Positions 12,794-33,982 of a DNA stretch of 64,000 nt are shown one piece after another. Each line of letters starts with the position of its first letter. The stretch's first letter is position 1. The stretch comes from Terriglobia bacterium. Its GTDB lineage: Bacteria > Acidobacteriota > Terriglobia > Acidiferrales > UBA7541. The position numbers and the translations under genes are program-made. Below the pieces are notes generated by a model. The model was not told where the DNA came from. It was given only the letters and a program-made list of their open reading frames with translations, and ran no database searches. Location of the stretch: NCBI GenBank assembly GCA_963695545.1, contig OY968796.1, positions 2,272,001 to 2,336,000 on the forward strand, in the 5' to 3' direction.

Positions 12794-13990
12794 ATGCTGA
12801 ATTGTGATGTGGCAATCCTTGGCGCCGGTCCATATGGCTTAGCGGCGGGCGCGCATTTGCGGAATATCAAGGGTCTTGATGTTCGAGTGTTTGGTGAGCC
12901 CATGGATTTCTGGAAATCGCACATGCCGGAGGGTATGTTCCTGCGATCGCCTTGGGCAGCTTCGCAGATATCGGATCCGCAATCGTCTCTAACTATGGAC
13001 GCATTCCGTCAGGCCACGGGCACGGAGATATCCAAACCGATTCCGCTTGATCGGTTTGTCGACTATGGACTTTGGTTTCAGAGTCAAGCCGTCCCGGAAG
13101 TGGATCGCCGCCACATCGAGCGAATCGATCAGCGTGCAGGAAGTCTCTGTGTAACTCTCGAGGATGGTGAACAGCTTTCCTGCAAGCGCGTTGTAGTCGC
13201 GGCGGGTATCAGCACGTTCGCGCGTCGTCTCTCGCAGTTTGAGGGGATTTCGCCCGAATTCGTAACGCACGCGTCGGATGGGAGAGACGTCCACAGATTC
13301 GCTGGCAAGCGGGTCGCCGTGGTCGGCGCGGGACAAAGCGCGCTTGAATCGGCAGCTCTGATTCATGAAGCGGGCGCGGAAGTGGAAGTGATCGCCCGCC
13401 AGTCGAGCGTGCATTGGCTGGGCTGGCGGGCGAGAATGCAGAAGCTCGGTCCCATCGCGAAGTTGCTCTATTCACCGCACGACATAGGTCCGGCCGGCGT
13501 CAGCCGAATCGTCGCCATGCCGCAATCCATGAAATATTTTCCGCGTGTCGTGCAAAATCGTTTTCGAATCCGTGCGCTCCGCCCTGCCGGGGCGCGCTGG
13601 CTTCAGCCCCGCTTCCACAGCATTCCCATTACCACCAGACGGCAGATTACGACCGTGGCGATGTCGGGCGACCGGCTGAATCTCCGGTTGGATGATGGCA
13701 CTACTCGCGATGTGGATCATGTTTTGCTCGGCACCGGATACAAGGTCGATGTCTCGCGCTATCCATTTCTGCCGGCGGAGTTGAGCAATAAGTTAGATCA
13801 AGCGAATGGCTTCGTGAAAGTAAACCGGGGATTCGAGTCATCCGTTCCGGGCTTACATTTCCTGGGCGCTCCTACTGCCTGGACTTTCGGCCCGCTCATG
13901 TATTTCGTTTGTGGAACTGATTTCGCCGCTCGACAACTGGCCGCATATGTTTCGCGCACAGGCACACGTTCGGGAAGTGGTTCAAAGTGA
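12794..13990 (+). CDS. FAD/NAD(P)-dependent oxidoreductase (flavin monooxygenase-like)
   Basis: GAGPYG FAD motif, GAGQSALE NAD(P) motif, GTGY, ESSVPGLHFLG. Confidence 0.85.
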   Translation: MLNCDVAILGAGPYGLAAGAHLRNIKGLDVRVFGEPMDFWKSHMPEGMFLRSPWAASQISDPQSSLTMDAFRQATGTEISKPIPLDRFVDYGLWFQSQAVPEVDRRHIERIDQRAGSLCVTLEDGEQLSCKRVVVAAGISTFARRLSQFEGISPEFVTHASDGRDVHRFAGKRVAVVGAGQSALESAALIHEAGAEVEVIARQSSVHWLGWRARMQKLGPIAKLLYSPHDIGPAGVSRIVAMPQSMKYFPRVVQNRFRIRALRPAGARWLQPRFHSIPITTRRQITTVAMSGDRLNLRLDDGTTRDVDHVLLGTGYKVDVSRYPFLPAELSNKLDQANGFVKVNRGFESSVPGLHFLGAPTAWTFGPLMYFVCGTDFAARQLAAYVSRTGTRSGSGSK

Positions 13991-14018
13991 TGTCTCCTGC
14001 CAAGGGAGCTTAATTCAG

Positions 14019-15221
14019 ATGGTGGATCAGAATACCCGGCCTGCCGATGAGCCCGGCGCCAAAGTTGGCGCCGTTGTCGTTGGAGGCGACTTTCATGGAC
14101 TGGGCATCATGCGCAGTCTCGGAAGCCGAGGTGTGCCAATTTGCGTCGTGGATGACGAATACTCCATCGGCCGTTATTCCAGATATGCGACTCATTACGT
14201 GCGCGCTCCCAATCTTCGCAAGGAAGAGGAGACCGTCGAGTTCTTGCTCGCCATGGGCCGTCGCTTGAACTTAAAAGGATGGGTTCTGTTCCCCACTCGC
14301 GACGAGCACGTTGCCACGTTCTCGCGGCACCGAAGCGCTCTGGCGGAGTTCTTTCGAGTTCCGACACCGGAATGGGAAAGTGTAAAGTGGGCCTGGAACA
14401 AGTGGAACACGTATTCCCTGGCCGAGAAGCTTGGGATTCCAATTCCAAAAACTTGGTGTCCGCGCAGCGTCGAAGAGCTCGATGCGATTGAAGCGAGCTT
14501 TCCGATCGGCATCAAGCCCGCCGTCAAAGAGGATTTTTTCTACGCGACGAAAGCAAAGGCCTGGCGCGCGAATAATCGCGACGAACTAAAGGCCTTATTT
14601 CTAAGAGCCTCGGCCCACGTTGGATCAAATGAAGTCTTAGTTCAGGAAATTATTCCCGGCGATGGTCATAGCCAATTTTCTTGCTGCGTTTTTTTCAAGG
14701 AAGGGAAAGTCATCGCCAACATGGAGGCGCAACGATGGCGTCAGCATCCGCCGGAATTCGGCCGGGCCGCCACATTTGTTGAGAGCGTCGACCTTCCTTC
14801 GATCGTAGACCCCACGCTCCGGTTTCTCCGGGCGATCAATTACTACGGCTTGGCGGAAGTGGAGTTCAAGCTGGATTCCAGAGATGGAAAATATAAGTTG
14901 CTGGACGTAAACGCCAGGACGTGGGGATTCCATGCACTAGGGCGGCCGGCGGGGGTCGACTTTTCGTACCTACTTTTCGCCGACCAGGTCGGTGAGACCC
15001 TGGCGCCGTGCCGAAGCCGGGCGGGCGTCGGTTGGATTCGCATGATTACCGACATTCCGACCAGCATATCCGACATTCTTCATGGCAGGCTCAAGCTGAA
15101 CGCATACTCCACATCATTGAAGCACTTCCGCGTTGAATCCGTTTTCAGTCGAGAGGACATCCTTCCGAGTATCGCTGAGATCGTCCTGCTTCCGTACCTG
15201 GCCGTGAAGCGTGGTTACTAA
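14019..15221 (+). CDS. ATP-grasp carboxylate-amine ligase (D-aspartate-ligase-like)
   Basis: LFPTRD, IPIPKT, IKPA, VQEIIPG, EVEFKLD...KLLDVNAR; GGGAG RBS. Confidence 0.85.
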   Translation: MVDQNTRPADEPGAKVGAVVVGGDFHGLGIMRSLGSRGVPICVVDDEYSIGRYSRYATHYVRAPNLRKEEETVEFLLAMGRRLNLKGWVLFPTRDEHVATFSRHRSALAEFFRVPTPEWESVKWAWNKWNTYSLAEKLGIPIPKTWCPRSVEELDAIEASFPIGIKPAVKEDFFYATKAKAWRANNRDELKALFLRASAHVGSNEVLVQEIIPGDGHSQFSCCVFFKEGKVIANMEAQRWRQHPPEFGRAATFVESVDLPSIVDPTLRFLRAINYYGLAEVEFKLDSRDGKYKLLDVNARTWGFHALGRPAGVDFSYLLFADQVGETLAPCRSRAGVGWIRMITDIPTSISDILHGRLKLNAYSTSLKHFRVESVFSREDILPSIAEIVLLPYLAVKRGY

Positions 15222-15332
15222 GGTACGCTCGTAAATATTTTCCCGACACAAGCGACGGGGCTCCGAACCAAAGAAAGCGCTCGGCAACAGTTCTTTCAGG
15301 AATAGATATCCGGCTTGAAATAGAGAGAAATT

Positions 15333-16385
15333 GTGTCGACAGTTTACAAATTAGATCCGTTGCGCGACCCTCGATGGAAAGCCCTGGTTGAGCGGCACCC
15401 GAGCGCATCGGTATTCCACACGACCGGCTGGCTCGAAGCCCTCCAGCGAACCTATGGGTATAGGCCGGTGGTGTTTACGACGTCGCCGCCAACGGGGGAA
15501 TTGCGCAACGGACTTGTTTTTTGTCGGATACGTAGTTGGATCACCGGGCCGCGAATGGTTTCACTTCCGTTTTCCGACCATTGCGAGCCATTGGTCAATT
15601 CCCCGGAAGAGCTTGCGTTCCTTCTGGATTACCTGCAGGCAGAAATGGAACACCAGGAATGGAGGTATTTGGAGGTCAGGCCGATCAATGGATGTGCGAG
15701 CCCAATAGCGAAGGAGAGCGGCTTCGGCGCCGCCAAGCATTACTACCTACATCGGATGGACATCAAGCCAAATGACGAGGACATTTTTCGGAGCCTTCAC
15801 AAGGATTCGGTGCAACGGCGGATCAAACGCGCAGCAAAAGCGGGGCTTGAATGCGAATGTGGGCGATCCGACAGGCTGTTAAAGGATTTCTACCATCTGC
15901 TATTGCTTACGCGAAGCCGCCATCGTCTTCCGCCGCAGCCATTCGCGTGGTTTCACAATTTGGCCTCCGCGATGGGCAGTTCGCTTGAAATTCGAGTGTC
16001 CTACAAAAATCAAGCGCCGACCAACGCCATTCTGACGCTGCGTTTTCGAGACATCGTTTATTACAAGTATGGGTGCTCAGATTCGAGGTTTAAGAATTTG
16101 GGCGCGATGCCTTTACTTCTGTGGCGCGCAATTCAGGAATCAAAAGCGGCGGGCGCAAATGAGTTTGACCTCGGCCGGTCGGAAATTGATAACGAAGGGT
16201 TAATCGCGTTCAAGAACCATTGGGTGCAGGACCACACTCAAATCGCCTATTGGAGATACCCTGCGCCCGATTCTATGGCTTTGGCTGGAGACTGGAAGCT
16301 GAATATGGTCAAACAGATTTGTGCGTGGATGCCGTACAGATTGCTTGCGATGACAGGAAACTTGCTTTACCGCCATATCGGATGA
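15333..16385 (+). CDS. GNAT/FemAB-like acyl- or aminoacyltransferase
   Basis: ASVFHTTGWL, SLPFSDHC, FDLGRS...GLIAFKNHW are typical of FemAB-related EPS proteins. Confidence 0.82.
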   Translation: MSTVYKLDPLRDPRWKALVERHPSASVFHTTGWLEALQRTYGYRPVVFTTSPPTGELRNGLVFCRIRSWITGPRMVSLPFSDHCEPLVNSPEELAFLLDYLQAEMEHQEWRYLEVRPINGCASPIAKESGFGAAKHYYLHRMDIKPNDEDIFRSLHKDSVQRRIKRAAKAGLECECGRSDRLLKDFYHLLLLTRSRHRLPPQPFAWFHNLASAMGSSLEIRVSYKNQAPTNAILTLRFRDIVYYKYGCSDSRFKNLGAMPLLLWRAIQESKAAGANEFDLGRSEIDNEGLIAFKNHWVQDHTQIAYWRYPAPDSMALAGDWKLNMVKQICAWMPYRLLAMTGNLLYRHIG

Positions 16386-16630
16386 GCAAGGATGGTTCAC
16401 GATTTTCATTCCACGCGAAGCATGCGAAGTCTCTCGACTGATCGATGGGCTCCGACGTTCTGATACTGGCACGCGTACACGAGCGATCCGTCAAGGTCAT
16501 GGAAATGCGCGCGCTCCGTCGAGAAAAATCCTCTTCACGCATGGATACCTCACCACGCGCGCGTGCGGAGCGCCGCTCTCCGAGAGGGCGTTACCGATAT
16601 GAAGCCGGTACAATCAGGCTGGCGAGACAC

Positions 16631-17551
16631 ATGGCTGAACCAGAGCGTATCTCAAATGCCCGCCCGCTATTCAGTATCGTCATAGCGGTCTACGACGATT
16701 GGGCGCTTCTCGATCAGTGTCTTCAATCCTTGGCTCAACAATCGAGCGAGGTGAGCTACGAAGTCATCGTCGTGGACGACGGTAGTAGAGATCCTGCCCC
16801 TGATTCAATCCGCCGTTGGATCGATTGTTATCCACTGATGGTCATTAGAGAATCGCACGCCGGAATCTCTGCCGCGCGAAATCGAGGCGTTCAGATTTCT
16901 AGTGGTGCGGTGTTGCTTTTCGTGGACGCTGATTGCAGGGTTCAGCCAAACTGTCTTGTGGCCCTCGCGTCGACCATTTCAAAATTTCCGCAGCAGAATT
17001 GTTTTCAGTTGCATCTCGTTGGAGATTGTTCGGGGCTGGTTGGGCGCGCGGAAGAACTGCGGCTGGCGACGCTTCAAGATCAGATGCTGCAGCAGGACGG
17101 CCGGATCCGATATCTAAATACCTCGGGATTTGCCATTCGGCGCGCCGCAGTAGACGTTGAGAATGGAATCTTCGATCCTATCGCCCTTCGGGCGGAAGAC
17201 ACGCTATTGTTGGCGACTCTGATTCAACGCGGCGAGCTGCCTCTATTTGTTACTGGCGCGTTCGTTCAACACGCGATTCGACTGTCTTTGCTACAGTGCA
17301 TTCGGAAGGATTTTCGGTCCGTCCACCTGGTCGGAAAGACGTATGACATCATCTCCTCGAAGGGCGTGAAATTTAGACTGAGTCATCGCGAACGTTTGGC
17401 GATGCTGCGATCGATGTGGAAAAGCTCCGGACGGGAATCGATCGGAAGGTCGGCATGGTTCGTAGTAACCGGGCGGCGAGCGCTGCGCCTGATCCTTTCA
17501 TTTTCTTACCGATGCTTCCACGGATTCTCGCAGAATTCCACGACGCTCTGA
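16631..17551 (+). CDS. GT2 glycosyltransferase
   Basis: FSIVIAVYD, EVIVVDDGS, SAARNRG, FVDAD. Confidence 0.88.
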   Translation: MAEPERISNARPLFSIVIAVYDDWALLDQCLQSLAQQSSEVSYEVIVVDDGSRDPAPDSIRRWIDCYPLMVIRESHAGISAARNRGVQISSGAVLLFVDADCRVQPNCLVALASTISKFPQQNCFQLHLVGDCSGLVGRAEELRLATLQDQMLQQDGRIRYLNTSGFAIRRAAVDVENGIFDPIALRAEDTLLLATLIQRGELPLFVTGAFVQHAIRLSLLQCIRKDFRSVHLVGKTYDIISSKGVKFRLSHRERLAMLRSMWKSSGRESIGRSAWFVVTGRRALRLILSFSYRCFHGFSQNSTTL

Positions 17552-18042
17552 AATTGATCGGGAGCTTGCGAAATACTCTCGGGGTTCGCGGTCGGCGGCA
17601 GTCGGTTGCCACGCGAGGAGTAGCGCGGGAAAATTGGCGGCGCCGGGAATCGGAGTGCCTCCGCATCTTGATTCACAACGCCCGCTGAACCAGCTTGCAA
17701 TTCGGTCATTGGCATGCTATTTCGAGCGCTAAGCATGTTTGCGGGTATGATCGTAACGATGGAGTCAACTGCCTAGGGGTCTGAGGAAACTCGCGTTGAT
17801 GACTTTTTGCCGGAAGTAAAAATGGTGGAAAGTGGGTAGAGCGCAGCCGGTCTATATTTAGGCGAAATTGTTTCCACTCCCGGGGGCGGAATGGCTGCAG
17901 GAAACGGTCAATTCGGTACTAAGACACTTGTTTACAGCGACATACGAGAAGTCAGTAGTGGTCCGTCGATTGCTCTCTTCATGGTCAAATGCATGTCTAC
18001 TCGATCGCTACGAAGGAGACGGAGCCCGAACAGACCCCATTG

Positions 18043-19140
18043 ATGAGCGACACGACTGCAATCGGGGACGATGCCACTCGCCAGCTGGCGCGCATTTGGC
18101 AGGAACTCCTGGGCGTCGATCCGATAGGTCTCGACCAAAACTACTTTGATTTGGGCGGCGACTCATCGGTGGCGGTGCACGTATTCGCTCGGATCGAGCG
18201 AGAATTCAAAGTCAAGTTGCCCCTCGCCACCCTATTCGAGGCTCCCACCATCGAAGAGCTCGCGCAGGTTCTGCGTCGCGAGTCCTCACCATCCGGATGG
18301 TCGCCGCTTGTCGCTATTCAGCCGGCGGGAACGCGGCCTACTTTCTTCTGCATGCATGGGGCTGGCGGAAACATTTTGATTTATCGTGACCTCGCGCGCC
18401 GATTGGGCTCCAATCAGCCGTTTTATGGCTTGCAGGCTCCTGGATTAGATGGGAGTCGTCCTCTGCTGACGCGCGTGGAGGAGATGGCGGCCCTGTACGC
18501 GAAAGAGATTCGGAAGATGCAGCCTCGCGGGCCCTACTTCCTTGGCGGTTACTGCATGGGCGGAACCGTTGCGCTCGAGGTTGCGCAACAGCTTCAAGCG
18601 TGTGGAGAACAAGTGGCCTTGCTCGCGATGTTCGATACCATGGATTGGTCTAAGATCCCCATCCCGTCGTTCTTAGGCAAAGGCTACCAGTCCTTCCAGA
18701 GGCTCGCCTTCCACGGAGCGAATTTCTTCCGCCTGGACGGCCGCGGTAAGCTCCAGTTTTTTAAGGAAAAAATGAAAACGCTTCGCAGCCGAATCCCGGT
18801 GTGGCGAGGAATGCTACTGGCAGAATTCGCGAGTCAACCCCGTGCCGTTGCGTCAGAATCCCTCTTGCTCGCGAAGGTCTGGCAAACAAACGACCGAGCG
18901 TGCGTCAACTACCTCCCGCGACCCTACGCGGGAACGATCACTGATGTTCGCCCCCTGAAGCAGTATCGCGCTTTCAATAAAACCGACGCAAAATGGGATC
19001 AGCTGGCGAAAGGCGGACTAAAGGTCGTGGTGCTGCCGACGTATCCCGCCGGGATGCTTGTCGAGCCATTCGTCAAGTATTTGGCTACTGTCCTAGAGAA
19101 ATCGATTGACGATGCGATTGGAAGATGCGGAGATACCTAG
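18043..19140 (+). CDS. Carrier protein (PCP/ACP)-thioesterase didomain 1 (Cys nucleophile)
   Basis: YFDLGGDS phosphopantetheine site, LFEAPTIEELA; TE motifs HGAGG and GGYCMGG; alternative start at 17989. Confidence 0.85.
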   Translation: MSDTTAIGDDATRQLARIWQELLGVDPIGLDQNYFDLGGDSSVAVHVFARIEREFKVKLPLATLFEAPTIEELAQVLRRESSPSGWSPLVAIQPAGTRPTFFCMHGAGGNILIYRDLARRLGSNQPFYGLQAPGLDGSRPLLTRVEEMAALYAKEIRKMQPRGPYFLGGYCMGGTVALEVAQQLQACGEQVALLAMFDTMDWSKIPIPSFLGKGYQSFQRLAFHGANFFRLDGRGKLQFFKEKMKTLRSRIPVWRGMLLAEFASQPRAVASESLLLAKVWQTNDRACVNYLPRPYAGTITDVRPLKQYRAFNKTDAKWDQLAKGGLKVVVLPTYPAGMLVEPFVKYLATVLEKSIDDAIGRCGDT

Positions 19141-19184
19141 CAATTCCCAGGTGGATCCCGCCTACAAGGCCGTGGAGGAGTTGA

Positions 19185-20048
19185 ATGACGGCCGCCATTA
19201 GCTGGTCTAAGACTTGGACATATTTAGACGGAGTTTGGCACGAGGGGAACGTGCCAATCATGGGGCCGCGTACCCACGCCGCTTGGCTCTGCTCCGTGGT
19301 GTTTGATGGCGCGCGGTATTTTGAAGGCGTTGCGCCCGATCTCGATCTCCATTGCGCGCGCGTCAACGACTCCGCTGCCAAACTATTCCTGAAGCCGACG
19401 GTTCCGACGGAGACATGGGTCAAGCTAGCCTGGGAAGGGATCGCCCGGTTCGATAAGGATGCCCCGCTCTACATTCGACCAATGTACTGGGCAGAAAAGG
19501 AAGGTCCTTGGATTCAGGCGCACGAGCCGGAGTCGACGCGATGGTGCTTGACGATCTACGAAGCACCCATGCGGCCACCTAAGGGTTTCTCGGTGACACT
19601 GTCACCGTATCGCAGACCGACGCTCGACACAATGCCGGTTGATGCGAAGGCTGGATGTCTTTATCCCAATAACGCGCGGGCTCTTTTTGAGGTGCAAGCG
19701 CGGGGTTTCGACAATGCGATTGTATGTGACATGCTCGGGAATGTCGCCGAACTGGCCACATCGAACATTTTTATGGCCAAGAACGGTGTAGTGTACACGC
19801 CCGTTCCGAACGGAACATTTCTCGCGGGCATCACTCGCCACAGGGTGATCGGTCTGCTGCGTGGAGCCGGTGTGAGCGTAGTCGAGAAGGCGCTGGCGTA
19901 TCGAGACTTCAAGGATGCGGACGAGATATTCTCGACAGGAAACTATTCCAAAGTAGTTCCAGTGACGCGCATTGATGATCGTACACTTTCATTTGGGCCT
20001 TTGTATGCCAAAGCACGAGAACTCTACTGGGCGTTCGCGCATTCATGA
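19185..20048 (+). CDS. Class IV PLP aminotransferase (branched-chain/D-amino-acid type)
   Basis: VFDGAR, YIRP, AKAGCLY, ELATSNIF, FLAGITR; GGAGGAG RBS. Confidence 0.9.
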   Translation: MTAAISWSKTWTYLDGVWHEGNVPIMGPRTHAAWLCSVVFDGARYFEGVAPDLDLHCARVNDSAAKLFLKPTVPTETWVKLAWEGIARFDKDAPLYIRPMYWAEKEGPWIQAHEPESTRWCLTIYEAPMRPPKGFSVTLSPYRRPTLDTMPVDAKAGCLYPNNARALFEVQARGFDNAIVCDMLGNVAELATSNIFMAKNGVVYTPVPNGTFLAGITRHRVIGLLRGAGVSVVEKALAYRDFKDADEIFSTGNYSKVVPVTRIDDRTLSFGPLYAKARELYWAFAHS

Positions 20049-20150: not shown

Positions 20151-21200
20151 ATGACGTCTAAGCCCATCTCTTCAACTGCTGAAGTGCTGACGCCGATTTG
20201 GGAACGCTTGCTGCAACGGTCTCCGATCGGTGCCGACGATAATTTTTTCGATCTCGGCGGCGATTCGTTGCTGGCCGTTCAGCTTTTTGCGGAAATCGAG
20301 CGAGCATGTGGTCGGGACTTGGTTCCCGTGACAATTTATTGTGCTCCGACGATCGCTTCTTTGTCTGCGATTCTCGACGAGCCCACCGCGCCGCGTTTCC
20401 CGCCTCTTCTGCAATTGAAGGCTGGCACTGAAGCGTCGCCGGTTTTCGTTGCGCACGGCCTTGGCGGCACCGCCATGGATTTTTTCCAACTCGTGAAACA
20501 CATCCAAACGCAACGTCCCATTTATGGGATGCAAGCCAAGGGCGCCGATGGCGCCGACGAACCCTTCGACCGGATCGAAGACTTGGCACAATTTCATCTC
20601 GACGCAATTCAGCAATTGCAGCCCCACGGTCCCTACTTTCTGGTCGGTTACTCTCTCGGAGGACTTGTGACGCTTGAGATGGCGCAACGCCTAACGGAGA
20701 AGGGAGAAAACGTCGCGCTGCTGGCCATGCTGGAAAGTTATCCGCACCCGAGGTTCCTTTCGGCGGTAGAGCGCACGCGCCTCGCCACTCGCATGGCGAG
20801 GAGCCGCGCTTCGGCCGTCGGTCGATTGCCCATACGCAATGTACTTTCCTACATTATTCACCCGTCTGAACGCGGCTCGAGTGGGTCCCGAGATGGGAAC
20901 GGAGACGCAGCAGGCAAGCCGGCGGTTAGCGCATCCGTTTCGCCGACGATGCAACGCGCTCGTGATACTGCCTACACCGCTTTGACGCGATATCGCCCGA
21001 AGTTTTACAGCGGATCGATAAAATTCGTGAGGGCCGAGATCGTCTCCGACTTCCCTGATGATCCTGCCGCAATTTGGTCTAGCTTGGCCGGTAAGTTTGA
21101 AGTTGAGACGGTGCCGGGTGATCATCTCGGCATCCTCGGCATACACTTCGAGACCCTCGCCTCCGTAATTTCCCGTTACTTGGCCGAAGCCTCGTCTTAA
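20151..21200 (+). CDS. Carrier protein (PCP/ACP)-thioesterase didomain 2
   Basis: FFDLGGDSL; TE motifs HGLGG, GYSLGG, VPGDHLGIL. Confidence 0.88.
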   Translation: MTSKPISSTAEVLTPIWERLLQRSPIGADDNFFDLGGDSLLAVQLFAEIERACGRDLVPVTIYCAPTIASLSAILDEPTAPRFPPLLQLKAGTEASPVFVAHGLGGTAMDFFQLVKHIQTQRPIYGMQAKGADGADEPFDRIEDLAQFHLDAIQQLQPHGPYFLVGYSLGGLVTLEMAQRLTEKGENVALLAMLESYPHPRFLSAVERTRLATRMARSRASAVGRLPIRNVLSYIIHPSERGSSGSRDGNGDAAGKPAVSASVSPTMQRARDTAYTALTRYRPKFYSGSIKFVRAEIVSDFPDDPAAIWSSLAGKFEVETVPGDHLGILGIHFETLASVISRYLAEASS

Positions 21201-21265
21201 CAGCGCAGCTGGAATTCGATGCTCTTCGCTCGGGCGCTCCAACTCTTCGCCGGCCCGGCTCCAGT

Positions 21266-26010: not shown

Positions 26011-27057
26011 TCACCCGCGCACTGCGGGGGTCGCGGCCCGAATCGACGACGCGTCGGCCTTCCCGGTGATCAGATACCGTAACCAATTGCTGTAAACGGT
26101 CGCGGCCGATTTTTGCCAGGTACCTTGGATGGCCTCGGAAATGGCGGCCTCGGGAAATCTTGCCAAGAGTTCCTCGCGTGGATCCGCAATAACGCTCTCT
26201 TGAAAATCCGATAGCAGTTTGGTGGCTATAGGGTCGAAGTATCCTTCTGGCATCGTCGGGTACGATTCTCTGTCCCGCCTCAAAAACCGTTTTATGTCTC
26301 TTCGGAACTCTTTGAGCAGGGTTCGCGTCTCGTATTCCGGATGACCCTGAAAGTGCACGAAGAAGCTGTTCTTCTTCTTTTTGACAAATAGGTCAACGCC
26401 CGCTTCCGCTGATTGCGTCAGGATCTCATATCCACAGGAAGTGAGCGCATCGGCTCGGACTTCATTCCAGCGAGAATGTGGAATCTGCATCCCATCCCCG
26501 AGGCCTTCGGTCAGCGCATGGCCGCGCACTTTCTTATACTCGAAAACGCCGAACTGTTTGTCAGGGAGGCGATGGCGAGGGATGCCGTCGCTGTAGAGGA
26601 CGCCGGCGTGAGCTGCCAGGCACGACAGTACCGTTGAAGTCGTGTTGCCTTCGGCCCAGTCAAGAACTTCGGTCAGGGCGGGCCAGTACGGTTCGTCCCG
26701 CAAGTCAGGGAGGAGCGGTTCAGTGCCAGTCACGATCACGCCGTCGAATCTACTGTTCAGAAGATCGCTTATCCCAGAATAGAAATCGTCGAGGTGTTTC
26801 CTTCCCGCGTCATTACGGGAAAGTTCGGGCAGGGAATAGAGCTTGAGAGATAACGGAATGTCGCCAGCCGCAGATTCGAGAAGTTCGAAGAATTGCACTT
26901 CGGTGTCCTCGAGCGCGGAGTCTGGCATGTTGTTGATCAGCGCGATTCTAACCGGCCCGGACCGCGATGTCCGATTGTCCGCGCTTCGCGCAGCCCGCGA
27001 ACGGTTCTTCCGCGACAAAAGATTCGGAACCCTTCCTCCGTCGATTGTGATTGACAT
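26011..27057 (-). CDS. metA: Homoserine O-acyltransferase (MetA/HTS family), divergent
   Basis: LINNMPD...TEVQF, FDGVIVTG, SCLAAHA (catalytic Cys), PHSRW, QGHPEY. Confidence 0.82.
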   Translation of the reverse strand: MSITIDGGRVPNLLSRKNRSRAARSADNRTSRSGPVRIALINNMPDSALEDTEVQFFELLESAAGDIPLSLKLYSLPELSRNDAGRKHLDDFYSGISDLLNSRFDGVIVTGTEPLLPDLRDEPYWPALTEVLDWAEGNTTSTVLSCLAAHAGVLYSDGIPRHRLPDKQFGVFEYKKVRGHALTEGLGDGMQIPHSRWNEVRADALTSCGYEILTQSAEAGVDLFVKKKKNSFFVHFQGHPEYETRTLLKEFRRDIKRFLRRDRESYPTMPEGYFDPIATKLLSDFQESVIADPREELLARFPEAAISEAIQGTWQKSAATVYSNWLRYLITGKADASSIRAATPAVRG

Positions 27058-27099
27058 TCCCTGGTACCTAGGCTGACGACGACCACGATCGCGACAGGC

Positions 27100-28377
27100 T
27101 TACGGAGTCGCTTTATCGAGTGCCTGCGCGAGGTCGGCGATTATGTCGTCGATGTGTTCGATGCCCACGCTCAACCGAATCATTTCCGGCGTCACGCCCG
27201 CTTTCAATTGCTCTTCGGGCGTCAGCTGACGATGTGTGGTGGACGCGGGATGACAAGCCAGCGATTTGGCATCGCCCATGTTGACCATGCGCTTGAACAA
27301 AGCGAGAGCGTCAAAGCATTTCACACCGGTCTCGAACCCGCCCTTAACTCCAAACGTAAGCAGGGAACAAGGCCGCGAGCCCAGATATCTCTGCGCCATC
27401 GGATACAACGGGCTATCCGGAAATCCCGCGTAATTTACCCACGCCACGCGTTTGTGGCCGCGCAAAAACTCCGCTACCTTCCGTGCATTCTCCACATGGC
27501 GTTCCACGCGAAGCGCCATCGTCTCGATCCCTTGCAGCAACAAGAATCCGTTGAAGGGCGAGAGCGTCGATCCCGTGTTTCGCTGGGCGACGGTCCGGCA
27601 GCGCGCCACGTACGCGGCCGCTCCATAGTGCTCGGTATATACCACGCCGTGATAGGCTATTTCAGGCTTGCTGAACATGTAGAAGCGCTCCGGATGATCG
27701 CGCCACGGAAATTTTCCGCTGTCAACTATCATCCCGCCCAACGTCGTGCCATGCCCGCCCATGAATTTCGTCATGGAGTGCACCACGACGTCCGCGCCAT
27801 ATTCAATGGGCCTCAATAAGATCGGCGTTGCCACGGTGTTGTCGACGATCAGTGGCACGCCGTGCTTGTGCGCTACGCGCGCGAGTCCTTCGATATCCGC
27901 GACGTTTCCAGCGGGGTTTCCGACACTTTCGCAAAAAACCGCGCGCGTGTTTTCGTCGATCAATTTCTCGACCGCGTCGGGATGATCACTCTCGGCAAAC
28001 CTTCCCGCAATTCCTTGCTTGGGCAAAATGTGTGCCAACAGCGTGTAGGTCGCGCCGTAGAGTTGCGGAAGCGAAACGATGTTGTTACCCAGCTCCGCGA
28101 TGTTGATCAGGGAGTAGTGGATTGCGGCCATTCCCGAGCTCACGCTCAGCGCTTCCACGCCGCCTTCAAGCGCCGCAACTCGCTTTTCCAGAATTGTGTT
28201 GGTCGGATTTCCGATGCGCGTGTAGATATTCCCCTGGACTTCGAGGTTAAATAACGCCGCGCCGTGCGCCGCGTCGTCGAATTCGAACGCGACCGTCTGG
28301 TAGATCGGCACGGCCACGGCTTTGGTCGTGGGGTCGCCGTCGTAGCCGGCGTGAATTGCCATGGTCTCGAGCTTCAT
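27100..28377 (-). CDS. metY: O-acetylhomoserine aminocarboxypropyltransferase / sulfhydrylase
   Basis: PIYQT, YTRIGNPT, VDNT, HSMTKFMGGHG (PLP Lys), HPASTTH, IRLSVGIE. Confidence 0.92.
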   Translation of the reverse strand: MKLETMAIHAGYDGDPTTKAVAVPIYQTVAFEFDDAAHGAALFNLEVQGNIYTRIGNPTNTILEKRVAALEGGVEALSVSSGMAAIHYSLINIAELGNNIVSLPQLYGATYTLLAHILPKQGIAGRFAESDHPDAVEKLIDENTRAVFCESVGNPAGNVADIEGLARVAHKHGVPLIVDNTVATPILLRPIEYGADVVVHSMTKFMGGHGTTLGGMIVDSGKFPWRDHPERFYMFSKPEIAYHGVVYTEHYGAAAYVARCRTVAQRNTGSTLSPFNGFLLLQGIETMALRVERHVENARKVAEFLRGHKRVAWVNYAGFPDSPLYPMAQRYLGSRPCSLLTFGVKGGFETGVKCFDALALFKRMVNMGDAKSLACHPASTTHRQLTPEEQLKAGVTPEMIRLSVGIEHIDDIIADLAQALDKATP

Positions 28378-28517
28378 ACGTTCAGTCGCCTCGGCATCAG
28401 AAACACATCTCTGGTGGCGTCGAACCAGAGCTCTTACGCGCCTCGATAGACATTCGCCTAACGCGTCTTGCGGTTGCGTGGGCCGAGTTTGGCTCAACTG
28501 CGCCGCGGCGGCGTCGG

Positions 28518-29759
28518 TCAGTCCGCGATCGTCTCAGCCCTGGATACCGGCGCAGGTGCCGGATTCCGCGCGAGCGCTTTCGTCATCGCCTGCGTCAGAC
28601 GTCGTGCAGCGAAACCCGCGCCGAACGCGAAGCGCATGACCGGCCCGAAGCTGTTCGCAGCCGCGAGCCCGACGAAATAAATGCCGGGAACGGATGACTC
28701 GAAATCTGACGACAACACCGGCGAGCCGTCCACACATTTGAGCTTCGAGCGGATGTCAGAATTGAGGAACGCCAGGCTTTCCGGATCAACTTTGTATCCG
28801 GTCGCGGCGATGACGTGCTCGGCGACGATTTCGCGTTCGGAACCGTCTAGACCGCGCAGATGCAGCCGCACTTTGCCATCGTCGATCGCGGCGCGCTGAA
28901 CAGCGAATCCAAGAAGAAGAGGCACGCGCCCTAGCACCTTGTCCTTAATAAACCAGCCTCCGGACGGGCCAAGCGTGGTTCGGACGATATTGATGCGCAC
29001 ACTCTCCGGTAAATAGTGAAACAACGCGGGCCCATCCGAGAAGAAGCGGGAACTCAGGCCCGGGCCGAGTCCTGAATCCGGATGTCGGATGCGCTTCCAT
29101 AACGATCGACGTTTACCCGGCGTCGGCGCGTTGTGAAATTTCAGGGAGGTGGCGCGAGCCACAAGCTGTACATCGGCGTCGGCGTCGCGCAGCAATCCAG
29201 CCATATCAATTGCCGAAGAGCCGGCGCCGACTACGACGACGCTGCGGCCCTTGAACGCTGCAAGATCGCGATGAAGGTAACTATGCGACACAAACTCCGG
29301 TGCGAGATTCGCCAGGACATCCGGAATGCGCGCAAAATGCGTGATTCCAACGGCGAGTACAACGCGACGTGCCTTGACCTCTTCGCCGTCGTCCAATCGC
29401 AAAAGAAATCCGTCCGCGGAGCACTCGATGCCGGCGACCAATTTGTCTTCGAGTTCCGGAACCATGCGGTCCTTGAAGGCGAGCCCATAATCGCCGAACG
29501 TGGCGAGGTGCACCGGAATGCCCATATCCGCGTATTCGATCCCACGTTCCGCGCAGAATTGTTTCAAAGTAAATTTGGCATCGGGATCGTAGATGTTCGA
29601 AGCGAAGCCGTCAGATTTAAGCTTCATGCCCTTTGGCATGTGTGCTTCCCAGCTATCCATCGGACGTCCAAAGATGCGGAACGGGATTCCGCGGCCGCGG
29701 AAGTGCGCGGCGATTGAAAGTCCGTAAGGTCCTGCGCCGATAATGGCAACTTCAGTCAT
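28518..29759 (-). CDS. FAD/NAD(P)-dependent oxidoreductase, paralog of 12794-13990
   Basis: GAGPYGL, MPKGMKLKS, GAGSSA, ATGY, ESSVPGIYFVG. Confidence 0.85.
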   Translation of the reverse strand: MTEVAIIGAGPYGLSIAAHFRGRGIPFRIFGRPMDSWEAHMPKGMKLKSDGFASNIYDPDAKFTLKQFCAERGIEYADMGIPVHLATFGDYGLAFKDRMVPELEDKLVAGIECSADGFLLRLDDGEEVKARRVVLAVGITHFARIPDVLANLAPEFVSHSYLHRDLAAFKGRSVVVVGAGSSAIDMAGLLRDADADVQLVARATSLKFHNAPTPGKRRSLWKRIRHPDSGLGPGLSSRFFSDGPALFHYLPESVRINIVRTTLGPSGGWFIKDKVLGRVPLLLGFAVQRAAIDDGKVRLHLRGLDGSEREIVAEHVIAATGYKVDPESLAFLNSDIRSKLKCVDGSPVLSSDFESSVPGIYFVGLAAANSFGPVMRFAFGAGFAARRLTQAMTKALARNPAPAPVSRAETIAD

Positions 29760-30270
29760 AGTCCTAACCAAGGATCCTTCCAAGTGGTCTCTGTTGCTCG
29801 CTGTGTCACATGCACCCCGCCGTCCGGGGGCATTAGCGATACTGGCCCGAAATCGGAAATCTGTCCAGACGCTGTGTGCGGGCCACCATCGTTTGAGATA
29901 CGTCCCGCGATCCATTTGTCTGCAATCGAATCGCCCACTTTGCGTCCTATAAATACCTTATAATGAGCCATATATAGGTCCTCAAAAGAGAAGGGAGCGA
30001 TTCAAATACCCTTTTCCGGCCAAGCAATTCCTCAAGAACGCGCCGTAGCACCAGTGGCAACCTGAGACCATTCCCACCGTCGGAAAGCGCTTTGCGAACG
30101 TCAAGCAGAGCGCGGGTCGCTCGGCATCAGGCGCTAGCCGTGGCAAAGCGGACATCCTGTATACTCTCCTCCAATTCGTGGCGTTTGCCCGCGCAATTTT
30201 GTGAGCAATTCGATGGAGCCCCGGGTTGCTAAGCGGTCGATGGCCCGATCCCGGTCAAGCAGCAGAGCCC

Positions 30271-31353
30271 ATGCAACGAAGAATTCCTCAACTCGACGGC
30301 GTCCGGGGCGTGGCGATTCTCGTCGTGATGCTTCACAACATCAGCCTGAAATATCCTCTATTCCACTCGCAACGGTTGTTCGCTGATGGCTGGATGGGAG
30401 TCGATCTCTTTTTTGTGCTTTCCGGTTTCCTGATTACCGGCATCCTGGTTGATACAAAGCAATCGGAGGCTTATTTCAAAAATTTTTACGTCCGTCGCTG
30501 TCTGAGAATATGGCCCCTTTATTACTCGCTGCTCTTTTTCATGTTCGTCGTTGTTCGTTTCGTGAGCAAGTCGCAATACCATGACATTATTCAACAGTCG
30601 TCGCCCTGGTGGGCCTTTCCGCTGTTCCTGCAGAACTTCTTGCTTCCGATTTCAACCAATGCGGCCGGCCCCTTGGGTGTCACCTGGTCGCTCGCCATTG
30701 AGGAACAGTTTTATTTGGTCTGGGCCCTGGTTGTGCGATTTTGTTCGGCCACTAGCCTGCGGCGCGTCGCCGTCGCGGAGATTTGCATTTCGCCCGTGCT
30801 ACGCTATTTCCTCTCGCTCCGCCACGTCGATCTCTACATAAACGTATTCTGCCGATTGGACGGCCTGATGGCCGGAGCGCTTCTTGCGCTTCTTGTTCGA
30901 TCTGACAAATTTATCCCATCGAAGTGGCTCAAGCGCGCCTGGATTTTGCTGGCGATCGCAACGCCGCTTGCAATCTTGACCGCGCGCTACAATCTCGGAT
31001 GGATTCTGTATTCCCTTACGGCGCTGGCTTCGGTGTCCTTCGTTTACGTTTCGTTGTTTTCACCACGAAAGTGGCTACGGTCAGTGATGACCAACCGATT
31101 CCTGGTCTATACCGGGGTCACGAGTTACGGGCTGTACTTGCTGCACAAGATTCCCTTTGGCGTGGTGCAAACGCTTCGTCTGGATCGTCATCCCTTCGTT
31201 CCGCTACCGTTCATATTCGTAACGAGTTTTGCGATGGCGGCGATCTCCTGGAATCTTCTTGAGAAGCCATTCCTGAACTTGAAGCGTTACTTCGAGTCCC
31301 AGCCGAGTGAGCGGGCTGGCCGCGGTCTCTCGATTTCAGTCGCTTCGCGCTGA
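30271..31353 (+). CDS. Acyltransferase-3 (OafA/YrhL) membrane O-acyltransferase
   Basis: LDGVRGVA, GVDLFFVLSGFLI, FYVRRCLRIWPLY, WSLAIEEQFY, SYGLYLLH. Confidence 0.93.
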   Translation: MQRRIPQLDGVRGVAILVVMLHNISLKYPLFHSQRLFADGWMGVDLFFVLSGFLITGILVDTKQSEAYFKNFYVRRCLRIWPLYYSLLFFMFVVVRFVSKSQYHDIIQQSSPWWAFPLFLQNFLLPISTNAAGPLGVTWSLAIEEQFYLVWALVVRFCSATSLRRVAVAEICISPVLRYFLSLRHVDLYINVFCRLDGLMAGALLALLVRSDKFIPSKWLKRAWILLAIATPLAILTARYNLGWILYSLTALASVSFVYVSLFSPRKWLRSVMTNRFLVYTGVTSYGLYLLHKIPFGVVQTLRLDRHPFVPLPFIFVTSFAMAAISWNLLEKPFLNLKRYFESQPSERAGRGLSISVASR

Positions 31354-31440
31354 ACTTTTGTCGGACGAGGGGATCGCAACAGAGTCTTGGAGCTTCATGG
31401 AAGGCGCGTTTCTCGAAATCGGATGCCTCGTATACTTTGC

Positions 31441-32289
31441 TCAGTGTTTCTTCAGCAGGCACGCACCGGTCCACGGATAATTTCCTTGCACCACCTTGGG
31501 TTCGGGCAATAAGGAGAGCAACTCCTCTGGTGCCCGGCCCAACTGTGCCGCGGTCCTGAGGAACCCCTGCGTGTCCGTTGGTTCCCAGCCGTACGCCGCG
31601 AAAAAATTCGCGCCGTCCGAGGGACCAAACTTGAACGCCGCGCCCGCGTCGCTGAGCTGCTTTCCGGTCGAGCGCTGCATGTATTTCAGCTGGCCGGGCG
31701 AGGCAAGGTCGATGATCCAGCTTCGGAAATGCTCCCCGAGAGCAAGATCCCGCGCCAAGGATGCAACCTCGTCGCTCGTGAAATAGATCAACAACCCTTC
31801 GGTAACGACTGCGATTTTCTTCGCTCGCTGGTCGAGATCCGTGAAAAGAGCTTGGCGTTTGGGGTTGTCGGACAGGTCCAAGCTGACGCGCTCGAGCCTG
31901 CATTTTGGTTTTTCGTTTCCAAGAATTTCTTGCTTGTACGAGACGATTTCTGGCAAGTCCACTTCCACCCATTGAAATTCCGGACGGAGCTCCATGCGGT
32001 ACGGCCGGGCGTCGAGTCCCGCGGCGAGATTCAACACAAGGTCCGCCCCTTCCCGGATTTCGCGCGAGATGAACTGGTCAAAAAGATAGGTCCGCGCTAC
32101 CCAAGCCCACTCATGTTTGTTTCCCTGAGCCAGGTTGTTGGCGATTTGAAATCCGCGTTCGCCGGCGAGGCGCTCGGCGAAAGGATCGCGGAACAGCGCG
32201 TCTGGCCGCTGCGTTTCGCGGGCGCGAAAATACGCAACCCATCGCGCGGTATCGGATATGTTGCGAACGGAAGAGTTCGTGTCGTCCAT
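31441..32289 (-). CDS. SAM-dependent O-methyltransferase (LCM/leucine carboxyl methyltransferase-like)
   Basis: DTARWVAYFRARE, LFRDPFA, LAAGLDARPYR, EVDLP, TEGLLIY. Confidence 0.88.
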   Translation of the reverse strand: MDDTNSSVRNISDTARWVAYFRARETQRPDALFRDPFAERLAGERGFQIANNLAQGNKHEWAWVARTYLFDQFISREIREGADLVLNLAAGLDARPYRMELRPEFQWVEVDLPEIVSYKQEILGNEKPKCRLERVSLDLSDNPKRQALFTDLDQRAKKIAVVTEGLLIYFTSDEVASLARDLALGEHFRSWIIDLASPGQLKYMQRSTGKQLSDAGAAFKFGPSDGANFFAAYGWEPTDTQGFLRTAAQLGRAPEELLSLLPEPKVVQGNYPWTGACLLKKH

Positions 32290-32728
32290 ACGCGAGCGCC
32301 CCAGAATGTCAAGAGAAACATTATGACGTAGAGTGCGAATTGCGGAACAGGAAATTGTTCGATTCGATTGTGGAATATCCGATTGCCAACGATCATATTG
32401 ATCGGCGGGGCTATGGGGTGGGCGTTGCAATTGACGAAAGAAGTTTGGTAGGGAACTCATTGCATACGATTCCACGACAGCGCTTGATCCGAAGCAGGGG
32501 AGCGGGATTGTGTTGATAAGGAATTGTCCGCGCGCCCGTGCCGAGAAAGCGCTCAAGAAGGCCCAAAATCTTGGTAACATTCCTAGATTGAGCATCTTAC
32601 GGTACGTATGTAAGTTTCCTGATCGCCATATTATGGTAGGCTGATTGCGTTCTGGGTCGTCGGGTCATTTTCGAAAACTTGCTTAGCTTCGCGCCGCGCA
32701 GCCAGATGACGTGAGATCCGGGCACAAG

Positions 32729-33982
32729 ATGGAGGCTCGAACCACTGTGGAACCAACGATTCTCATTGCGACTACCCAGCGCTGGATCTCGACCGCCCGG
32801 CTGGCGGTCGCGCTCGCTGACGCCGGGTTTACCATTGATGCTGTCTGCCCGCCTCGTCACCCACTAGCCGGGACCGGCGTGGTGCGAGACACATATCGGT
32901 ATCGCGGCCTGTCGGGCGTGACGTCCATCGCCGATGCAATCGCGGCTTCAAAACCGGACTTGATCGTTCCCGGAAACGACTTGGCGACCCAGCAACTGCA
33001 CCTTCTGTACGCTCGCGAGCAGCAGAATGGTGCCGCCGGCGCGCCGATTTGCGCGCTGATCGAGCGTTCGCTCGGAGCTGCGAAGAATTTTGCACTTGCT
33101 TACGCGCGGACCAAATTTATGGATCTGGCCCAGGAAGAGGGCATCCGCACTCCGAACACGGAAGTCATTAGCGACATCAGCGACCTCAAGAAGTGGATCG
33201 GTCACTCGGGTCTTCCCACGGTCCTGAAAGCGGACGGCACTTCGGGAGGCGACGGAGTGAGAGTCGTCCGGACCTTGGAAGAAGCCGAACGGGCGCTGCG
33301 GATTCTCCAAGCCCCTCCGCTTGTGGCGCGGGCGGCGAAGCACGCTTTGATCGATCAGGACCTGACGATGGTTTGGCCCACGCTGCTTCGGACGCGCTCC
33401 GTCGTGAATGCCCAATCATTTGTTGCGGGGCACGAAGCAACCAGCGTAGTCGCTTGTTGGGAGGGGGAGGTATTGGCTGGCCTCCATTTTGAAGTGATCA
33501 AGAAACTTCATGCCACTGGCCCGGCCACCGTTCTGCGCCTGACCGAGCACTCCGAGATGTCGACCGCTGCCGAAAAAATGGTGCGCCGCCTTGGCTTATC
33601 GGGAGTGGTCGGGTTTGATTTCATGCTCGAGGCACAAACCGGAAACGCTTATCTAATCGAAATAAATCCTCGATCGACTCAAGTGGGGCACCTGGCGCTG
33701 GGCCTCGGACGCGATATTCCCGCGGCGCTGTTCTCGGCCGTGTCCGGACAGCCTATCCGCCCCGCACCGAAAGTCACGGAATACGACACGATCGCTCTTT
33801 TCCCGCTGGAATGGATTAGAGACTCGGCCAGTTCTTTTCTTCAATCTTCCTATCATGATGTTCCGTGGGACAGACCCGAACTGATTCGCGCCTGCGTCCG
33901 CGCACGCCGGAAACAGCGCGCCTGGTATTCCCAGCAGGGTCGCCTTCAGGCCTTTTCGGTGGCGCGCCCTCCTCGCGTATGA
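32729..33982 (+). CDS. ATP-grasp domain protein 2
   Basis: GIRTP, PTVLKADGTSGGDGV, GFDFM...YLIEINPR. Confidence 0.82.
   Translation: MEARTTVEPTILIATTQRWISTARLAVALADAGFTIDAVCPPRHPLAGTGVVRDTYRYRGLSGVTSIADAIAASKPDLIVPGNDLATQQLHLLYAREQQNGAAGAPICALIERSLGAAKNFALAYARTKFMDLAQEEGIRTPNTEVISDISDLKKWIGHSGLPTVLKADGTSGGDGVRVVRTLEEAERALRILQAPPLVARAAKHALIDQDLTMVWPTLLRTRSVVNAQSFVAGHEATSVVACWEGEVLAGLHFEVIKKLHATGPATVLRLTEHSEMSTAAEKMVRRLGLSGVVGFDFMLEAQTGNAYLIEINPRSTQVGHLALGLGRDIPAALFSAVSGQPIRPAPKVTEYDTIALFPLEWIRDSASSFLQSSYHDVPWDRPELIRACVRARRKQRAWYSQQGRLQAFSVARPPRV

Follow-up and report, generated by a model that had tools for sequence, protein, structure and literature searches.

We analyzed a 64,000-nucleotide stretch of DNA (the window; positions 2,272,001 to 2,336,000 of contig OY968796.1, assembly GCA_963695545.1) from an uncultured soil member of the Acidobacteriota, whose genome is a single contig of 4.16 Mb with a completeness of 93.8%; related stretches are labelled Terriglobia, Acidobacteriaceae and Acidiferrales. 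The region from 12.7 to 34.0 kb holds a cassette of enzyme genes built around two proteins, T-TE1 and T-TE2, each of which joins a carrier (T) domain to a thioesterase (TE) fold. An initial annotation, made from the window alone, had proposed that this cassette builds an unusual amino-acid or acyl unit and loads it on the surface polysaccharide encoded around it. Every gene it listed was recovered from the open reading frames (ORFs) with Pfam and NCBIfam; ThDP stands for thiamine diphosphate, PLP for pyridoxal phosphate and SAM for S-adenosylmethionine in the following list of the region.

9860 to 12517 (+): GT4-CE4 fusion of 885 aa; GT4 glycosyltransferase in the N-terminal half (Pfam), CE4-fold deacetylase-like in the C-terminal 485 aa (11060-12517)
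12683 to 13990 (+), likely start at the ATG at 12794: flavoprotein 1, class B flavin monooxygenase-like (Pyr_redox_2/3, partial Lys_Orn_oxgnase)
13911 to 15221 (+): ATP-grasp ligase 1, accessory (weak Pfam match to CPSase_L_D2, E 7e-5; NCBIfam PRK12767-type, 4e-15)
15333 to 16385 (+): FemAB/GNAT-type transferase, accessory (PF13480, PF02388; TIGR03019 at 104 bits, cut-off 260)
16445 to 17551 (+): GT2 glycosyltransferase (PF00535)
17989 to 19140 (+): T-TE1, carrier and thioesterase-fold domain (Pfam PP-binding, Thioesterase)
19185 to 20048 (+): class IV (branched-chain type) aminotransferase (PF01063; NF009896 at 468.8 bits, cut-off 262)
20151 to 21200 (+): T-TE2, carrier and canonical thioesterase (Pfam)
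21266 to 22498 (-): cytochrome P450, CYP107-like, accessory (PF00067)
22643 to 24190 (+): ThDP enzyme of the benzoylformate-decarboxylase type (TPP_enzyme_N, TPP_enzyme_C; NF005760 at 724 bits, cut-off 363)
24245 to 25816 (-): stand-alone AMP-forming ligase of the acyl/aryl-CoA-synthetase type (AMP-binding, AMP-binding_C)
26011 to 27057 (-): MetA-type homoserine O-succinyltransferase (PF04204; NF003776 at 403.8 bits, cut-off 358)
27100 to 28497 (-): MetY-type O-acylhomoserine sulfhydrylase, a PLP gamma-replacement enzyme (TIGR01326 at 613.6 bits, cut-off 495.1)
28518 to 29915 (-): flavoprotein 2, class B flavin monooxygenase-like (Pyr_redox_3)
30226 to 31353 (+): AT3 membrane acyltransferase, accessory (PF01757; five hydrophobic segments)
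31441 to 32595 (-): LCM/TIGR00027-type SAM methyltransferase, accessory (PF04072; TIGR00027 at 116 bits, cut-off 93.6)
32711 to 33982 (+): ATP-grasp ligase 2, accessory (several ATP-grasp Pfam families)
34038 to 37428 (+): rmlA, rmlB, rmlC and rmlD of the dTDP-rhamnose pathway, the downstream glycan flank (Pfam)

Sugar genes lie on both flanks of the cassette, as had been noted. Pfam identified heptose-type genes, methyltransferases, GT4 glycosyltransferases and a UDP-glucose/GDP-mannose dehydrogenase upstream, and rmlABCD, Ig-like surface proteins and an IS3 element downstream. The 20 kb preceding the window (L099) encode a transketolase-type E1 beta subunit, a lipoyl-hexapeptide transferase, DegT, a GT2, an AsnB-like protein, Wzy, two Wzx and a GT4. 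A Wzx/Wzy-type locus thus spans at least 20 kb before the window through the rml genes at 37.4 kb, and the cassette sits inside it. We found no condensation (C) domain (PF00668) across the whole 4.16-Mb genome, and the sole full match to the ketosynthase (KS) family PF00109 was a 429-aa FabF-type gene 230 kb away, along with two weak matches elsewhere. The claim that the cassette has no C or KS partner therefore holds, a canonical assembly line of the nonribosomal peptide synthetase (NRPS) or polyketide synthase (PKS) kind was rejected, and, with no condensation domain genome-wide, the T-TE proteins cannot be stray pieces of an assembly line located elsewhere.

We scanned one genome per species with an alignment of T-TE1, which matched 444 stretches, 418 of them encoding T-TE1 relatives. 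The best 80 of these 418, each with 10-kb flanks, made up our set of related loci, and 35 window proteins were compared to them by tblastn; from the recurrent clusters of ORFs lacking a homolog in the window, 23 representatives were scanned with Pfam and some with NCBIfam. A locus was taken as a cassette locus when it held at least three of six core genes at 45% identity or more. The genes proved to be co-conserved, as the initial annotation had supposed, since 44 of the best 80 related loci qualified. Some of the locus counts are lower bounds because a 10-kb flank may miss more distant genes and because 20 of the 80 loci span less than 20 kb. The core set comprises T-TE1, the class IV aminotransferase, T-TE2, the ThDP enzyme (a predicted decarboxylase), the AMP ligase, MetA, MetY and a flavoprotein. 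Among the 44 cassette loci, the AMP ligase was present in all, the ThDP enzyme and MetA in 40 each, the aminotransferase in 37 (median identity 81%), T-TE2 in 35, MetY in 35 (median identity 86%) and flavoprotein 2 in 31. Two blocks, one of T-TE1, aminotransferase, T-TE2 and ThDP enzyme and the other of flavoprotein 2, MetY, MetA and ligase, are internally constant in gene order but stand in several orders and orientations relative to each other; the retention of both blocks through such shuffling argues for selection on the set.

The cassette also recurs beside polysaccharide genes. By our own tally, 40 of the 44 loci have a gene of one of four kinds (glycosyltransferase, nucleotide-sugar, flippase or exosortase) no more than 10 kb away; the four others are one full-length locus (L005) and three short ones (L006, L010 and L025). 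The GT2 ortholog (26/44; median identity 59%), usually upstream of T-TE1, is the commonest glycan neighbour of the cassette. Fewer loci carry FemAB (18), a phosphopantetheinyl transferase (PPTase; 16), an aldehyde dehydrogenase (ALDH; 16), an exosortase (14), flavoprotein 1 (14), ATP-grasp 1 (13, adjoining flavoprotein 1 in all 13 loci that have both), ATP-grasp 2 (10), a Cupin with an unassigned 361-aa protein (10), AT3 (9) or the LCM methyltransferase (7), and the window-type P450, an AspH-like gene and an aspartokinase occur in four loci each and a homoserine dehydrogenase in two. The loci with an exosortase up to 10 kb from the cassette are L003, L009, L019, L026, L029, L031, L040, L041, L043, L044, L052, L054, L060 and L072; the exosortase of the related loci is nearest to XrtC, at 170 bits against a cut-off of 300. 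The version of the cassette in the window is without the ALDH, PPTase and exosortase found in its closest related loci such as L003, and it has the P450 in place of those genes, as do L029 and L031. We could make no claim that ALDH and P450 exclude each other: they occur in 16 and 4 of the 44 loci with no overlap, but only about 1.5 shared loci would be expected. Some of the remaining 36 of the 80 loci hold incomplete cassettes, and 18 show a distant adenylation (A) domain match about 5 kb upstream of the T-TE. A separate observation concerns the Cupin pair: a Cupin_3 gene and a gene for a protein of 345-361 aa with no Pfam or NCBIfam match stand together, usually between MetA and the ligase, in 10 of the 44 loci (L019 4909-6594, L023 7111-8196, L025 10701-12337 and seven others), and the window is without them.

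MetA, MetY and the flavoprotein are the heart of the cassette, a point that the initial annotation overlooked. MetA is the only copy in the genome and MetY the only full-length copy. MetY passes the curated sulfhydrylase subfamily model TIGR01326, which favours a sulfur nucleophile, and falls below the equivalog model NF004757 (690.8 bits, cut-off 790). We surveyed MetY across 121 evenly sampled genomes of the class at a threshold of E 1e-80 and found any match in 29 of the 121 and in 2 of the 14 genomes of the family of the window. MetY of at least 70% identity was confined to five of the 121, namely the window genome (G000), G083, G108, G115 and G103, the others being 47-55% identical. Because 12 of the 14 genomes of the same family are without a MetY match, MetA and MetY are bound to the cassette and are not housekeeping genes, and a housekeeping metA-metY operon was rejected as an explanation. 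Stand-alone T-TE1 orthologs (at least 59% identity) were found only in G000, G083 and G115 among the 121, and a genome of the same genus (G125, 95% complete) gave no T-TE match at E 1e-20, though its rml and CE4-like genes are present. The cassette is thus a patchy accessory module carrying its own homoserine-activating branch, to which an aspartokinase or a homoserine dehydrogenase has been added in the relatives counted above.

Both T-TE proteins have a GGDS phosphopantetheine site, and they differ in the thioesterase domain. In T-TE1, Cys189 (within GGYCxGG), Asp216 and His242 are kept in all 80 loci, the carrier Ser59 in 79 and Pro353, which occupies the position of the canonical His, in 79. 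The best PDB match of T-TE1 is AB3403 (4ZXH; E 7.8e-37 over carrier and TE), in which the His of a GDH motif lies opposite Pro353. T-TE1 thus departs from the Ser-Asp-His triad of type I thioesterases, a point that the initial annotation also overlooked: its nucleophile is Cys189, and the canonical His is absent. T-TE2 has the type I triad, Ser168/Glu195/His325, with Ser and His kept in 41 of 41 orthologs; as the acidic residue, 29 orthologs have Asp and 12 have Glu. In 9 of the 41, T-TE2 has Pro in place of the carrier Ser, so that T-TE1 holds the essential carrier. Some T-TE1 homologs (P0002 and P0016; loci L007 and L020) have tandem carrier domains before the Cys-type TE, three in P0002 (559 aa) and two in P0016 (473 aa). 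A TE of the Cys189/Pro353 type, 53-60% identical, also ends large PKS-NRPS proteins in other Acidobacteria (L047, L055-L058, L063, L065-L071, L074, L075, L079, L080 and L082); in L056, which we checked with Pfam, the line reads KS-acyltransferase-aminotransferase-C-A-T, followed by C-C-T-TE, and a GT2 lies 2 kb downstream.

The 'free adenylating enzyme' of the initial annotation does stand alone, but it is of the acyl-CoA-ligase type and not an amino-acid A domain. Its best NCBIfam model is PRK06187 (353 bits, cut-off 476), and its best solved match is a feruloyl-CoA synthetase (5.7e-69), followed by the malonyl-CoA synthetase MatB, with the NRPS A domain of LgrA at 4.7e-59. It reads PMSHAVG at the A4 position, where amino-acid A domains carry what we take to be an Asp-bearing motif. 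We predict that the ligase loads the carrier. Membership in the accessory NCBIfam models associated with PEP-CTERM was rejected: the ligase scored 203.5 bits against TIGR03098 (ligase_PEP_1; cut-off 592.35), and neither T-TE matched TIGR03100 (hydr1_PEP).

The ThDP enzyme can be aligned along its entire sequence with benzoylformate decarboxylase (E 2e-36), although Pfam gave no match to the middle domain, and is predicted to be a 2-oxo-acid decarboxylase. The class IV aminotransferase is in turn predicted to convert an amino acid to a 2-oxo acid; its homologs in alpha-proteobacteria are 52-66% identical, and the two gene contexts that we examined, on S. meliloti and Ruegeria replicons, were uninformative. 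Flavoprotein 2 always stands beside MetY, and S- or N-oxygenation is the role that we infer for it. The P450 is an accessory tailoring enzyme whose nearest solved structures are 8YHN, BioI (3EJB) and PksS; these are of the CYP107 type and are not aminoacyl-carrier hydroxylases.

The C-terminal 485 aa of the 885-aa GT4 protein, a domain that the initial annotation overlooked, adjoin the cassette and gave no match in Pfam (E 0.001) or NCBIfam. In an AlphaFold model of this half (pLDDT 72.4, pTM 0.73), nine of the ten best Foldseek matches in the PDB were CE4-type deacetylases including ArnD (E 5e-6 to 1e-4; TM 0.4-0.6 on the target). The motifs THDVE, HDLxHDG, RGGCC and HPDY are invariant in 12 sequences. 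In a PDB profile search, five of nine matches were CE4 deacetylases; these were non-significant (E 0.047 or worse), and the alignments pair THDVE with TFDD and HDLxH with HxxxH. An hhalign comparison with seven canonical CE4 proteins of relatives gave a probability of 10%, using a CE4 alignment that was poor. The Atlas placed the domain in clusters of its own family, one auto-named polysaccharide deacetylase, with PF01522 clusters more distant. We take the domain to be a divergent CE4-fold enzyme that likely acts as a sugar de-N-acetylase. The CE4-like half is a separate gene of about 455 aa in relatives, stands alone in 10 of the 44 cassette loci, and lies 5 kb from the T-TE genes in G033 and G083. 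A strict link between the CE4-like family and the T-TEs was rejected, since the family lies mostly away from them, and it is a frequent, not a fixed, partner.

We propose that this condensation-free cassette makes an unusual short acid from homoserine, loads it on a carrier and passes it to the surrounding surface polysaccharide, a reading that leads our list but to which we give slightly less than even confidence. In this scheme, MetA would O-succinylate homoserine, supplied in some relatives by the added aspartokinase and homoserine dehydrogenase, and MetY would swap the succinate, most likely for sulfide, to give homocysteine, a gamma-substituted aminobutyrate. The class IV aminotransferase would convert this product to a 2-oxo acid, from which the ThDP enzyme would remove CO2. 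Oxidation of the resulting aldehyde would yield an acid one carbon shorter (C3), of the 3-mercapto- or 3-thio-propionate type; because an ALDH occurs in 16 of the 44 relatives but not in the window, another oxidant would be needed here. The flavoprotein beside MetY would oxygenate the heteroatom. The ligase would then adenylate the acid and load it on Ser59 of T-TE1, the Cys189 domain of T-TE1 would take the acyl group as a thioester, and the Ser/acid/His domain of T-TE2 would deliver it to the acceptor. This acceptor would probably be a sugar that the neighbouring GT2 or GT4 builds, and the attachment point may be an amine freed by the CE4-like domain. The P450, methyltransferase, AT3, FemAB and ATP-grasp genes would be lineage-specific extras. 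The glycan-decoration reading of the initial annotation thus remains the best available, given the co-conservation and the glycan neighbours, although the template on which it was modelled did not stand (see below).

Several points weigh against this proposal. The genome has a single exosortase, 750 kb from the locus, and its PPTases are more than 1.2 Mb away; the ALDH is missing at the locus, and the best ALDH match in the genome is only 40% identical. The full-length locus L005 has rhamnose catabolism upstream and no glycan-synthesis gene within 10 kb, and secondary-metabolite clusters often adjoin polysaccharide loci with no functional tie. The CE4-like family occurs in 23 of the 121 genomes of the class and lies within 10 kb of a T-TE in three only (G000, G033 and G083). 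At the level of the enzymes, ligases of this type often yield CoA esters rather than load carriers, MetY could use a nucleophile other than sulfur, and T-TE1, having no canonical His, could be catalytically unusual or inert. Flavoprotein 2 gave remote matches to solved structures and fell in generic Atlas clusters of the N-hydroxylase or flavin monooxygenase (FMO) type only. The substrate that we assign to every enzyme comes from family membership alone.

Known systems show parts of such a scheme. In Nod-factor synthesis (NodC, NodB and NodA with NodF and NodE) and in lipid A synthesis (LpxC and LpxD), a sugar is deacetylated and then reacylated. The window likewise groups a glycosyltransferase with a CE4-fold deacetylase-like domain and with a dedicated carrier that has an acyl supply of its own. 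In contrast to those systems, the cassette has no acyltransferase of the NodA or LpxD type, so that the carrier-fused thioesterase-fold domains would have to perform the transfer, its acyl unit apparently comes from homoserine and not from fatty-acid synthesis, and the CE4-like family also occurs without the cassette. The Dlt system, made up of the ligase DltA, the carrier DltC, DltB and DltD, D-alanylates teichoic acids and shares with the cassette a stand-alone AMP ligase and a carrier that decorate an envelope polymer without a condensation domain. The cassette differs in that its carriers are fused to TE domains, its ligase is of the acyl type and a seven-gene precursor pathway is attached; Pfam found no MBOAT (DltB) or DltD among the ORFs of the window, which has the AT3 membrane acyltransferase instead.

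The T-TE proteins have likenesses of their own. The terminal acyl carrier protein-TE part of Pks13 transfers mycolate to trehalose, and is thus a carrier-TE didomain in which the TE serves as an acyltransferase to a sugar; both T-TEs match the Pks13 model and structures below threshold. They differ from Pks13 in standing alone without a megasynthase, and T-TE1 has Cys in place of Ser and no canonical His. AB3403 of Acinetobacter baumannii (4ZXH/4ZXI), which among solved proteins is nearest to T-TE1, likewise carries Cys in a GxCxG nucleophile motif, but it is a full C-A-T-TE module and retains the GDH His where T-TE1 has Pro353. Cys alpha/beta-hydrolases of the CmaE/SyrC type shuttle acyl groups between carrier domains, and T-TE1 resembles them in having a Cys-nucleophile alpha/beta-hydrolase beside a carrier, which suggests transfer rather than hydrolysis; it differs in being a type I TE-fold domain fused to its own carrier. 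A bolder form of our proposal, which we consider doubtful, is that soil Acidobacteria decorate their exopolysaccharide by a thiotemplated route: a private branch from homoserine to homocysteine would supply a carrier with a short sulfur-bearing acyl group, and the Cys-type, His-less TE, acting as a sugar acyltransferase, would graft this group onto the amino sugar that the divergent CE4 deacetylase had exposed. If true, both the class of glycan modification and the catalytic use of the TE fold would be new.

The loci covered by the PEP-CTERM accessory models resemble the cassette in pairing an AMP ligase with alpha/beta-hydrolases in exosortase-linked polysaccharide loci, and 14 of the 44 cassette loci have an exosortase; the difference is that the cassette ligase and T-TEs are not members of TIGR03098 or TIGR03100. 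A full-text literature search found no paper on this gene set. In the passages searched, Haft et al. 2006 (PMC1569441) make no mention of an acyl-CoA ligase, acyl carrier, FemAB, decarboxylase or hydrolase, and the relevant passage of PMC2907700 notes only a PEP-CTERM/EpsH locus. The module is real, conserved and previously uncharacterised, and we place it as a variant of glycan tailoring that depends on carrier proteins.

The strongest competing explanation, which we rate as possible but clearly behind the polysaccharide reading, is that the cassette makes a free or glycosylated small metabolite, such as a thio-, sulfino- or aminooxy-acid or a hydroxamate-type chelator, that T-TE2 hydrolyses off, with the adjacency to glycan genes reflecting co-regulation or shared export. 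The hydrolytic triad of T-TE2 is intact in all 41 orthologs, the cassette is patchy, as secondary-metabolism genes usually are (only three of the 121 class genomes have a stand-alone T-TE1 ortholog), and L005 is without glycan-synthesis neighbours. Both flavoproteins show partial matches to the N-hydroxylase family PF13434 and fall in the N-hydroxylase/FMO-type Atlas clusters, and a flavoprotein adjoins an ATP-grasp gene in 13 of the 44 loci. A variant would follow the logic of cycloserine synthesis (DcsE/DcsD/DcsG), the flavoprotein N-hydroxylating an amine that MetY couples to O-succinylhomoserine through an N-O-C bond. Against a free metabolite, 40 of the 44 loci have a glycan or exosortase gene no more than 10 kb away and 26 have the GT2 ortholog, and we found no dedicated exporter conserved with the core among the scanned genes of the related loci; the sulfhydrylase cut-off passed by MetY favours a sulfur nucleophile.

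The acyl unit might go to an envelope lipid or a lipid-linked anchor (an aminolipid, a lipid-A-like molecule or the reducing-end anchor of the polymer) and not to the polysaccharide repeat, which we consider unlikely. The Asp/Asn-hydroxylase-like gene (4/44 loci) is nearest to OlsC (255 bits) and LpxO, two acyl 2-hydroxylases, with each score under its cut-off; lipocalin-like genes occur in two loci, and the window has lipid A genes 10 kb further downstream. The nearest NCBIfam name of the ligase is fatty-acid CoA ligase, and the P450 is close to BioI, which acts on acyl-ACP. However, these supporting genes are infrequent accessories, the core has no conserved lipid acyltransferase family beside it, and a homoserine-derived precursor pathway fits a fatty acyl chain poorly.

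The initial annotation had leaned on sets of A domain, T domain, P450 and TE, of the kind of NikP1/NikQ/NikP2 and BpsD/OxyD/Bhp, as its template. Beta-hydroxylation of a carrier-bound amino acid to give a modified monomer, as in NikP1/NikQ/NikP2, is very unlikely here: the P450 does stand between T-TE2 and the ThDP gene in the window, and a few loci have a hydroxylase of another family (AspH-like or a second P450) at a comparable place, but the P450 is present in only 4 of the 44 loci, the solved structures nearest to it are CYP107 enzymes, and the ligase belongs to the acyl/aryl-CoA type with PMSHAVG at the A4 position. This template was consequently abandoned. A chance neighbourhood of housekeeping metA-metY and unrelated genes within a polysaccharide locus is hardly credible, for although MetA and MetY are single-copy and pass curated methionine-pathway models, 12 of 14 same-family genomes have no MetY match, the MetY clade of at least 70% identity tracks the cassette, and the genes stay together through several rearrangements across the 44 loci.

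If the cassette decorates a polymer, it would add to the known glycan modifications a carrier-protein route, probably with an acyl group bearing sulfur or another heteroatom, and would give a function to a Cys-nucleophile TE subfamily that is without the canonical His. The eight soluble enzymes form a testable pathway that could be reconstituted in vitro without a cultured host; none of the named proteins among the 120 best protein matches came from an isolate. The cassette is common in Acidobacteria, with 418 relatives of T-TE1 in the collection of genomes at species level. These bacteria rank among the most abundant in soil, where their polysaccharides influence how soil aggregates and retains water; to our knowledge, the chemistry of these polysaccharides is almost unknown.

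Other observations concern the genes around the cassette. The initial annotation had named an 'AlgD-like' enzyme as the source of a uronic acid to which the unit might be amide-linked. The UDP-glucose/GDP-mannose dehydrogenase gene is present at 7318-8658 (+), but two frameshifts break it in this assembly; it is out of frame from about 7725 to 7884, and the NPEFLREG motif there lies in another frame. In short-read contigs from four runs of one study, one base is deleted near 7722-7729 (two runs) and one is inserted at 7884 (all four); these changes would put the gene back in frame, so that the break may be an assembly error or specific to the strain. The dehydrogenase is present in 7 of the 44 cassette loci and ATP-grasp 2 in 10, and both are therefore accessory. 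Another apparent frameshift splits the upstream Wzx-type flippase (L099 12646-13991, G000:C1:2264646-2265991) into two overlapping ORFs.

In L099, about 18-20 kb before the window (13-2072), Pfam identified the transketolase-type E1 beta gene followed by a lipoyl domain fused to a hexapeptide acyltransferase; the pair is a further unusual system for acyl delivery within this polysaccharide locus. At 3044-6208 (+) of the window, genes for a GHMP kinase, a nucleotidyltransferase, a SIS isomerase and a HAD phosphatase follow one another, in what looks like a nucleotide-activated heptose pathway feeding the locus. The 407-aa ORF at 8624-9847 (+), directly before the GT4-CE4 gene, belongs to no Pfam or NCBIfam family, has no hydrophobic segment and has no homolog among the 80 related loci. 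Rfam and tRNA scans of the window gave no match, including no riboswitch that might hint at a ligand, and of four regex matches to PEP-CTERM-like or VPEGGS-like tails in the window, none lies in a plausible short secreted ORF. Downstream, an IS3-family transposase pair (HTH_Tnp_1, then rve) at 38746-39923 (+) lies between two genes for DUF1573/ASH-type Ig-repeat surface proteins (37537-38613 and 40283-41980, both on the - strand). Further downstream, at 57440-60804 (+), two adjoining paralogs of about 545 aa with weak DUF748/YhdP-like matches lie between tryptophan-pathway genes.

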